A stretch of 64,000 bases of DNA, taken from contig OY820905.2 of assembly GCA_963555755.3 (NCBI GenBank), positions 1,408,001 through 1,472,000 on the forward strand, written 5' to 3'. The translations under genes and the position numbers were made by a program. Below, piece after piece: positions 16,092 through 18,065 of this stretch (its first letter is position 1; each line of letters begins with the position of its first letter). The DNA is from Nitrospirales bacterium (GTDB lineage: Bacteria > Nitrospirota > Nitrospiria > Nitrospirales > UBA8639). The notes under the pieces are model-generated. The model did no database searches and was not told the origin of the DNA. It saw nothing but the letters and a program-made list of their open reading frames with translations.

Positions 16092-18065
16092 GTAGAGTAG
16101 AGCACTGGTGCTCATCCTGGAGCTGCTCTCGAACGTTTCGGCGCACGCGCCTACTCCGGGCTAGAGCAGTCAGAAATAACCAGCGCTCCCTCATCAAACC
16201 GTGCATGCGGTTTTCTCGCACACGGCTTTCCGATGTTCTTCAGGCCAAGGCATGCGCCGAGCGCCAGCCCGGTCCCACAGGAACCTTGTACAGCCCGTAA
16301 CGCCCGTAAAGATCAGCATGCGGGAAGCGGCCTAGGCCGCTTCGTCGATCCTTCACCTTATGGCGTTTCATCAAGTGAGTTCGCAGCCGGGCTTCCGCAT
16401 GGTTTCTGACCTTGTTCATCGCCAGACTTGAGTTACGATAGTGGAAATAGTTCGCCCACCCTCTCAGGCTGCGATTGACCGTTCCCACGATAGCACTCAA
16501 GGGAATGGCAGTCAGTTCCCGTTGTGTTAGTGCCGTCAGCCTCGCCTTGATTTTCTTCAGCGATGGCTCCGACGGACGAACATTCGGGTACGGTTTCCCA
16601 GAACGTCCCCCTCGACTCAGCTGAATCGTAAAACCCAGGAAGTCGAAGCTCGCTTGGGTGGCGTCCACGATAGTCGTCTTGGTCTCGTTGAGCGTGAGGC
16701 CCAATCGTGCCAGTACGGCTCGCACCACCTTCAGCGGTTCCACGACATCTTTTCGGCACAGCACGACAAAGTCGTCTGCGTAGCGCACGAGGTGCGCTTG
16801 CAGCTTGTCTTTGAGGTGCCGCCGTTGCCATAGCCGATCCAACTGGTGTAGGTAGCAGTTGGCCAATAGCGGTGAGAGCACCCCGCCTTGCGGCGTGCCT
16901 TTGCTGTTGGCATTCCCGCCACCCACACCCCGCTTCACGCCGTTGTCGTCTTCACCAATGACCGGGGCTTTGAGCCACAGCTTGATGAGGTGCAAGATGC
17001 CACCGTCAACAATGCGCTCAGCGACCATGGCCAGCAGCTTGGCATGCGGGATACTGTCGAAGTAGTTCGACAGGTCGGCGTCTATGACGTGGGTGTAGCC
17101 TGCCCAGAGCGTATGGGCAATGTCGTTCACCGCATCATGGGCCGATCGCTTGGGCCGGAATCCGTACGAATTCGCACAGAAGTCGGCTTCAAAGATCGGC
17201 TCGATGATGAGCTTGACTGCCATTTGCGCCACTCGGTCTCGGATCGTCGGGATCCCTAGCGGACGCAGACTGCCGTCCGCTTTGCGTATCATGACGCGCC
17301 GCACCGGTTGGGCTCGGTAGGTCTTGGCTTTCAGATCACGGGCCAATTCCCGCAGAAACGTGTCTACCCCGATTCCACTCTCTATGGCCTTGAAGCTGAT
17401 CCCATCACTACCGGGGCTGCCTCGATTGGCTCGGACAAGCCGCCAGGCATGATTGAGGATATCCTCCTGGCTGATCTTGTCGTAGAGTGCGTAAAAGCGA
17501 TAGGCCGGTTCTTGCTTGGCCTTGGCATACAGCTTCCTCTGCAGCGTCCTGATCGTCTCCGGGGTGGTTAGCGCCATGGCAATCCCCTGATCCTCCGCTC
17601 TTCGGTTGCATGAACAAAGCAGGGTTCCTTCCCTCGACCGGGGTTGTGTTGTCCCTCGGCCTCAAGCGGTACGATGAACCCCTCCGACTCCCGTTCCGGG
17701 CCGCTGTGATTTCGTTGCCTTATACACATTGGTCGGTGTCCTCCCCACCCCCAAAAACGGGTCTCCAGCACTGGGCTATACGTCTTCCAGAACATGCCGT
17801 CCTTGCTACCCCGGGAGTCGATGGGTGTCACTTCCGTTATTCCAGCACCCTTCCAGCGGCCTTCCCCTTCTGACCACAGGGTCGGCGTCTCCACTTTGTT
17901 TACGAGGCTACTCATAGGTTCACTTGCGTTACGGCCTGCTCTTTTGCTGTGTGGAAACTTACGACCCCGCGTTACCACGACGCCGCTTCCTCATGCTACC
18001 AAGGTGTACGGACAATTCCTTGGACGGGACTTTAACCCGCTAGACATACTGCTGTTACTGCGAAC
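16092..18065 (-). mobile_element. Group II intron (ribozyme plus RT ORF)
   Basis: 5' end GTTCGCAG at 18065; domain V AAGCCGTGTGCGAGAAAACCGCATGCACGGTTTGATGAGGG after the RT stop; 3' end CTCTACTCTAC at 16092. The joined exons CAAGACCTGACC|CTCAGCC match the empty site at 2607-2628. Confidence 0.9.
16240..17577 (-). CDS. ltrA: Group II intron reverse transcriptase/maturase, no endonuclease domain
   Basis: RPLGIPTIRDRVAQ, SYGFRPKRSAHDA, GTPQGGVLSPLLAN, VRYADDFV, FDFLGF, domain X LRGWANYF. Confidence 0.95.
   Translation of the reverse strand: MALTTPETIRTLQRKLYAKAKQEPAYRFYALYDKISQEDILNHAWRLVRANRGSPGSDGISFKAIESGIGVDTFLRELARDLKAKTYRAQPVRRVMIRKADGSLRPLGIPTIRDRVAQMAVKLIIEPIFEADFCANSYGFRPKRSAHDAVNDIAHTLWAGYTHVIDADLSNYFDSIPHAKLLAMVAERIVDGGILHLIKLWLKAPVIGEDDNGVKRGVGGGNANSKGTPQGGVLSPLLANCYLHQLDRLWQRRHLKDKLQAHLVRYADDFVVLCRKDVVEPLKVVRAVLARLGLTLNETKTTIVDATQASFDFLGFTIQLSRGGRSGKPYPNVRPSEPSLKKIKARLTALTQRELTAIPLSAIVGTVNRSLRGWANYFHYRNSSLAMNKVRNHAEARLRTHLMKRHKVKDRRSGLGRFPHADLYGRYGLYKVPVGPGWRSAHALA

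Follow-up and report, generated by a model that had tools for sequence, protein, structure and literature searches.

The window, a 64,000-nt stretch of a Nitrospirales genome, contains a group II intron on its minus strand, inserted in CAAGACCTGACC|CTCAGCC (Table 1). The 5' part of the intron matched the Rfam model RF02005 (domains I-IV) at 18033-17799 with 80.4 bits, and its 3' part matched RF00029 (domains V-VI) at 16230-16092 with 45.4 bits, above the cut-off of 40. The boundaries, GTTCGC at 18065 and CTCTAC at 16092, recur in a 99.7% identical copy elsewhere in the host genome, where the flanks are different. These matches and this copy confirmed the intron coordinates and the insertion site given in a preliminary description of the locus. 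The bulged A of domain VI is located 7 bases from the 3' end, and the terminal AC is of the AY type. Domain VI (16098-16195) varies in length within the lineage and falls into two classes: together with domain V it spans about 72 nt in 58 locus matches and 136-154 nt in 42. The window intron belongs to the longer class.

Table 1. Features of the intron locus and of related sites in the window
Feature	Position	Strand	Remark
Group II intron, 5' GUUCGC ... CUCUAC 3'	16092..18065	-	1,974 nt
Domains V and VI; branch A bulged at 16098, domain VI extended by a long insertion	16092..16230	-	RF00029
RT/maturase encoded by the intron; YADD motif at residue 266; lacks an endonuclease domain	16240..17577	-	445 aa
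EBS1 GGUCAG in loop GUGGUCAGA closed by CCCU/AGGG	17870..17875	-	covariation with exon positions -1 to -6
EBS2-position loop UAAACAAAGU	17893..17902	-	2/5 pairs with the window exon
EBS3 (G at intron nt 260), pairing with C, the first base of the 3' exon	17806	-	39/39 pairable
5' exon, inner part of TIR arm (TGCAAGAC CTGACC)	18066..18079	-	IBS1 at 18066-18071
3' exon CTCAGCC (IBS3 = C)	16085..16091	-	
Opposite TIR arm of the small inverted-repeat unit holding the intron site; target of an IS4 copy	18189..18203	+	
Empty copy of the insertion site	2607..2628	-	22 nt equal to the reconstructed empty site
IS4-family element in another copy of the TIR motif, AGACCTGACC(C) duplicated	14433..15901	-	more copies at 18203-19670 and 19716-21184

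The consensus GUGYG is absent from the 5' ends of the lineage: among 87 starts, GTTCGC was present in 56, GTACGC in 19, GCATGC in 8 and GTATGC in 4. The GUUCG start had thus been read correctly, and it does depart from GUGYG, but within its own lineage it is not atypical. The 5' boundary of the window intron is fixed by the divergence of flanks between copies together with the IBS1 register. This corrects the annotation of 5' ends in the lineage, which standard boundary searches are likely to have missed. The exon-exon joint was sought in the reads of four runs (contig sets, one RNA) and was not found in them. In the RNA run, coverage extended to parts of several intron variants, although coverage alone is no proof of transcription, and two of the four runs contained a 3' flank that is absent from the host genome.

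The intact ORF in domain IV passed TIGR04416 with 379.6 bits (cut-off 300). The only Pfam domains to exceed their cut-offs were RVT_1 and GIIM, and an endonuclease domain (En) was not among them, in agreement with the preliminary description. We placed the RT in a tree confined to references from groups g1, g2 and g3; verified members of classes C, D and E and the named g4 members (Pe.ca.I3, Geobacter M18, Thiocystis and Thiorhodococcus) lay outside its scope. The window clade was sister to g3 (Ni.ha.I1 and an A. caldus fragment) with a join support of 92/72; g2 (B.th.I3) joined next outside, and g1 (Sr.me.I2) was distant. The RT is class F-like, an RT-X without En that groups with class F references (g2-g5). 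A C-terminal RT fragment of Nitrococcus mobilis Nb-231 nests inside the window clade, and a g4 fragment is listed for this strain in Table S2 of Toro and Martinez-Abarca 2013 (PMC3552965), although the two fragments differ in length (175 and 162 aa). On this evidence, the window clade is probably group g4 of class F. An initial assignment to class G/g1 was rejected, as Ca.ac.I1 comes from Catenulispora rather than Accumulibacter and Sr.me.I2 is distant. One relative (L010:5) combines a GCATG-type 5' part with an RT 83% identical to that of the window, which suggests recombination between subfamilies.

In the accessible parts of the literature on class F groups g2-g4 (PMC3552965, PMC3753933), the RT-X of about 445 aa without En and the intron length of about 1.97-1.99 kb resemble those of the window intron, whereas the 5' end of the window lineage is G(U/C)(U/A)YG instead of GUGYG. 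No shared g4 target is described in the accessible part of Toro and Martinez-Abarca 2013 (PMC3552965), and the g3, g2 and g1 references are located at unrelated sites.

Judged by its GGGGWSAS end and by the Y1 genes that it flanks, the target repeat is the terminal inverted repeat (TIR) of TIR-associated tyrosine transposases (TIRYT). It is not attC-like and is no array recombination site, although it was called an array repeat earlier. Genes of this kind were named by Di Nocera et al. 2013 (PMC3733652), who gave the TIR consensus GGGGWSAS and described solo, dimer and clustered copies; they belong mostly to TnpA-Y1 subclass 2.1, in the HUH ssDNA-processing family (bioRxiv 10.1101/279083). The reverse complement of the consensus, STSWCCCC, corresponds to the intron site, which is cut between the second and third C, and the insertion motif of the lineage is (C/T/G)TG(A/T)CC|CC. 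The repeat family carries the end motif as GGGGTCAG, and the window copy, AGGGTCAG, has one change. In the window, GACCTGACC occurs 23 times with up to 1 mismatch, compared with 12.4 +/- 3.4 expected, and none of 100 shuffles reached this number. The empty copy of the site, which the preliminary description had already pointed out, proved to be an exact match over 22 nt, and a second near-copy at about 2647-2754 matches about 125 nt of the 5' exon side at 85%. No integron integrase was detected among 29 ORFs scanned in the window, and the site is CTGACC|C, not the attC TTGT/T point.

The host genome contains 17 Y1_Tnp matches. Inverted repeats with YTGACCCC at their ends border many of the long matches, and several of the largest repeat families of the genome flank Y1 genes. 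The window repeat CAATACTCATGCCTGACCCC flanks the gene of one such match, at G000:C1:1147244. No Y1 gene was found beside the family of the intron's own repeat in the host genome, where its sister families do flank such genes. Of 201 genomes of the phylum, 21 carry the intron's own repeat, TGCAAGACCTGACCCC, and the controls gave 0 matches. Most of the 30 fetched TGCAAGACCTGACCCC loci are without a Y1 gene; in four genomes (G139, G093, G028 and G183), copies of the exact window repeat in opposite orientation lie on both sides of a Y1 gene. Of these, L233 was confirmed by Pfam. A C-terminal HTH was detected in the Y1 proteins of L023 (Bac_DnaA_C, over the cut-off) and L233 (HTH_23, weak); the other 7 of the 9 Y1 proteins scanned gave no HTH hit. 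The repeats resemble the TIRtrons of PMC3733652: they share the GGGGWSAS end, they occur as dispersed solo, dimer and clustered copies, and in pairs of opposite orientation they bracket a Y1 gene whose product carries a C-terminal HTH. The repeats described here receive both an intron and an IS4-family element, a use not mentioned in the accessible passages of that paper, the main text of which does not contain the word intron.

The pairing between intron and target was analyzed over related loci. In the window intron, a CCCU/AGGG stem (17881-17878/17868-17865) closes the loop at 17877-17869, and EBS1 GGUCAG forms all six pairs with the exon CTGACC, as the preliminary description had proposed. 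Plain MFE folding of domain I was uninformative about the position of EBS1 (z -0.7), and the assignment is therefore based on covariation together with the Rfam alignment. We fetched the best 79 of 455 confirmed genome matches and the best 80 of 507 confirmed metagenome matches, a sample chosen by closeness to the query and thus biased to close relatives. The 5' end was located in 112 loci, including 17 host sites and 3 duplicates; 5 further loci had no boundary. The EBS1 loop was readable in 97 loci, or 90 after removal of duplicates. EBS1 and the exon formed on average 5.81 of 6 pairs over these 90 sites, compared with 5.05 after shuffling (maximum 5.3 in 10,000), and this covariation fixes the position of EBS1. 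The combinations included GGUCAG/CTGACC (28), GGACAG/CTGTCC (12) and GGACAC/GTGTCC (4), as well as the rarer GGACGU/ACGTCC (2), GACCAG/CTGGTC (1) and AAUGGG/CCCATT (1). In an alignment of 87 sequences, exon position -3 and intron nt 193 shared 0.92 bit of mutual information. Similarly, intron nt 260 was pairable with the first 3' exon base in 39 of 39 cases, which marks it as EBS3.

EBS1 was GG[AT]CA[CGA] in 77 of the 90 loci. The exon ended in [CGT]TG[AT]CC in 68, with 22 departures, and in the strict STSWCC in 55. On an 81-leaf tree, EBS1 position 3 changed 12 times, almost always between U and A, so that GGUCAG and GGACAG interchanged about 12 times, compared with 1, 2 and 3 changes at positions 1, 2 and 4, respectively. 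The changes mostly keep EBS1 inside the TIR consensus GGGGWSAS. Sister lineages (45-50% RT identity), with boundaries chosen by motif and distance, are inserted after exon ends as diverse as TATCTG, ATTTGG, ATTTTG, CCATGG, CCATGT, ACTCCG, CCTCTG, GCAAGA and ATCTCA, and one 49% relative (L060) is still found at CTGACC. A close relative with 82% RT identity (L099:2013) has switched to EBS1 AAUGGG, is inserted after CCCATT, and represents an escape from the TIR motif.

EBS2 is present but relaxed, and its pairing is poor in most members. In unaligned tests, the loop at intron nt 164-173 showed excess pairing in one register, at about -9 to -14 (z about 4.5). All five pairs were formed in 6 of 80 loci, compared with 1.2 expected (maximum 5 in 2,000 shuffles), and at least four in 19 of 80, compared with 11.1 expected (maximum 22). 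Column mutual information for exon positions -7 to -15 had given nothing, and the conclusion drawn from it, that EBS2 was missing, was overturned by these register tests. EBS2 has been reported to be dispensable for IIE/IIF splicing in the accessible part of Nagy et al. 2013 (PMC3753933).

In the host genome (G000, 4.62 Mb), the 99.7% copy is accompanied by three copies at 89-93% and by a second subfamily starting with GCATG. All 17 related 5' ends come after (C/T)TGACC, and 16 of the 17 insertions are followed by CC, the window intron by CT. Seven of the 17 are a composite of 2,740 nt, 97.6-100% identical, which consists of an ORF-less version of the window intron with another intron inside domain V; one was compared over 2,636 nt, and further tandem inner introns follow there. 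These composites lie in different flanks, which points to recent independent insertions, although independence is less certain for three of the host sites, which have a 135-bp upstream unit in common. At the composite loci (G000:C1:1688360-1691099 and six similar ones), an ORF-less GCATG-type derivative of about 750 nt occupies seven TIR sites and carries a g2-like intron (450-aa RT) inside its domain V. The same g2-like intron is also found in full-length members and in tandem.

Outside the host genome, we considered 62 distinct sites, each preceded by 150 nt or more of upstream sequence. An inverted partner (13/16 or better) was present at 16 of them, compared with 1.2 and 0.8 in two controls; the other 46 had no inverted partner in the available DNA, many contigs being short. 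Seven of the 62 sites (L009, L012, L023, L112, L120, L135 and L152) abut a Pfam-confirmed Y1 gene, and in 6 of these the partner arm is on the far side of that gene. An eighth candidate, L063, failed Pfam. Among 40 related genomes, an RT match at E <= 1e-60 was obtained in 2. The record labels of the relatives include Pseudomonadota, Nitrospirota, Thermodesulfobacteriota, Chloroflexota and Campylobacterota, although many records are metagenome bins and such labels are fallible.

The host insertions were concentrated in repeats. With a repeat family defined by at least 3 other copies, 15 of the 17 host sites were in such families, compared with 404 of 1,533 empty YTGACCC sites (p 2e-7) and with 285 of the 584 empty YTGACCC sites outside long ORFs (p 1e-3, with a crude ORF mask), p-values that overstate the case because the introns are related and the loci were picked by closeness to the query. 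Survivor bias could give a similar picture: an intron reading about 7 bases would enter any YTGACC|C, harmless intergenic copies would persist, and EBS1 would be kept by descent. That so many intergenic empty sites (285/584) already belong to repeat families, that 2 of the 17 host sites lie outside them, and that EBS2 pairs poorly in most members all speak for this explanation. We nevertheless consider it unlikely, because the enrichment persists against intergenic sites, and because EBS1 does mutate, mostly inside the TIR consensus, whereas sister lineages vary freely. In addition, RRY occupies positions -9 to -7 at all 17 host sites, and at 41 of 71 outside sites, but at only 332 of the 1,533 empty sites. 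As 133 of 176 empty RRY-YTGACC|CC sites are already repeat-family members, recognition of this linear motif alone would explain the pattern, and at the level of sequence motif reading is inseparable, as cause or effect, from repeat targeting. Spread as a passenger, by TIRYT or IS4 transposition or by duplication instead of retrohoming, could be suspected from the 135-bp upstream repeat unit shared by three host sites and from the IS4 copies that crowd the same motif. However, the position of the intron, at the arm's outer end, is external to the element, and near-identical copies with base-exact ends are joined to different 5' repeat families and 3' flanks. By this flank diversity, passenger spread appears largely refuted, and we regard it as very improbable.

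We also considered help from structure or protein, as in IIC-attC introns, in which case insertion would need a stem between the arms or ssDNA made by TIRYT. Inverted partners occur at 8 of the 17 host sites and at the 16 outside sites described above, some of them, in the host or outside, within 40-135 nt; a strong local hairpin (z below -2) was found at 16 of 81 sites; and TIRYT belongs to a family that processes ssDNA. Yet the median local fold had a z of only -0.3, and that of the window site was 0.0, which rules out a general hairpin requirement. Moreover, partner arms are often 750-1,150 nt away or absent, and IBS1 would be base-paired in a formed stem and hidden from EBS1. By contrast with TIRYT, replication is suggested as the source of ssDNA by the orientation of the introns: when the origin and the terminus were placed by GC skew, the sense strand was the leading strand for 15 of 17 introns but for only 130 of the 349 repeat sites that are empty (p 3e-5, overstated for the reason given above), indicating that the RNA entered the lagging-strand template. 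We thus give this explanation slightly less weight than survivor bias. The preliminary description had suggested single-stranded or hairpin DNA as the substrate; the lagging-template orientation fits the former, and the fold statistics speak against the latter. Its analogy to IIC-attC introns is not supported as to mechanism, given the 6-bp EBS1, the EBS2 loop and the scarcity of hairpins, whereas the proposed specialization of the lineage on this repeat agrees with the covariation of EBS1, the repeat families at the host sites and the excess of partners outside.

We therefore favor, with good confidence, the reading that an endonuclease-less intron occupies the outer end of a TIRYT repeat and that its lineage retrohomes into such repeats through EBS1 and EBS3, using ssDNA at the replication fork. 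The intron anatomy, the EBS1/IBS1 and EBS3/IBS3 covariation, the repeat identity, the repeat enrichment and the strand bias are read directly from the DNA. EBS1 (GG[U/A]CA[G/C/A]) and EBS3 would pair with (C/T/G)TG(A/T)CC|C on the single-stranded lagging-strand template. By analogy with RmInt1 and RmInt2, for which a lagging-template bias has been shown experimentally (PMC4615759, accessible part), the intron would splice, reverse-splice into ssDNA and be primed from the nascent lagging strand. Further specificity may come from linear context (RRY at -9 to -7, C at +2 and an A/T-rich stretch at -13 to -16), which the RT-RNA particle, rather than a hairpin, would read, with EBS2 pairing optional. 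Selection may hold EBS1 on the motif, since the repeats offer many copies, in intergenic DNA and in both orientations, and presumably move between taxa with their transposase. The whole lineage is thus likely to use TIRYT repeats as a shared landing site, to judge from the sites compared here.

Homing into transposon inverted repeats is already known, and the habit has so far been described for single introns. As described in the accessible part of PMC4615759, RmInt2 of Sinorhizobium meliloti GR4 (class D) homes into the inverted repeats of ISRm17. RmInt2 and the window intron are alike in being endonuclease-less and IIB-like, in targeting a transposon inverted repeat, in their relaxed EBS2 pairing and in their bias for the lagging-strand template. 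RmInt2, however, is one recent intron of one strain with one IS, whereas the RTs described here are 59 to 100% identical and come from several phyla; their target is a TIRYT repeat family with only an 8-base end in common, and EBS2 is largely unpaired. The IIC and IIC-attC introns, as presented in the accessible parts of PMC4424553 and PMC7923331, share with the window lineage a lineage-wide preference for a multi-copy intergenic class of sites and the lack of En, but they use an EBS1 of 3-4 bp, no EBS2 and an upstream DNA stem-loop, whereas the window lineage has a 6-bp EBS1, an EBS2 loop and no general hairpin. In the accessible part of the 2015 review (PMC4424553), the target specificities of bacterial group II introns are counted as three. 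Searches of open-access papers yielded no description of class F introns being tied, as a lineage, to TIRYT repeats.

We tentatively propose, as a possibility somewhat short of probable, a fourth lineage-wide specificity beside unique homing sites, terminators and attC. The EBS1 of these class F introns would have co-evolved across phyla with the GGGGWSAS ends of TIRYT repeats; the RT-RNA particle would read the repeat context, or single strands exposed by TIRYT; about 7 paired bases would suffice; and the dock would be shared with IS4. If so, a lineage tied to TIRYT repeats would represent a fourth target specificity, and the poorly understood TIRtron repeats would be seen to serve at least two unrelated mobile elements as landing sites. 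As an intron that has recently expanded in nature and whose short target is dominated by EBS1, with EBS2 optional, it would make the role of EBS2 in class E/F testable, and likewise the question of how an RT without endonuclease gains specificity.

The IS4-family element, with ends CAATACTGTTCACTTAGAT, has 21 copies in the host genome and targets the same TIR motif, so that a single landing motif serves two unrelated mobile elements. The duplication that it makes is about 10-11 bp long, for example AGACCTGACC(C); of the 21 copies, about 20 fit this pattern, and one (G000:C1:2782803) does so poorly. No strand bias was detected among the 21 copies (9 vs 12). The accessible text of the IS4 review (PMC2266710) mentions no CTGACC target.

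The intron is located in a 22-kb stretch rich in mobile elements, downstream of glmS (23107-24936). Within this stretch, HigB/HTH and PIN toxin-antitoxin modules (1149-2490 and 21490-22100) lie between TIR copies. A 1,966-aa RHS protein (5293-11193) carries the Pfam domains SpvB, FG-GAP and TcdB_toxin_midN as well as internal repeats of 168 nt, and it ends directly before an IS66-type element with a DruA-domain ORF. Just downstream of glmS, at 22272-22919, a 91-nt unit is repeated six times in tandem.
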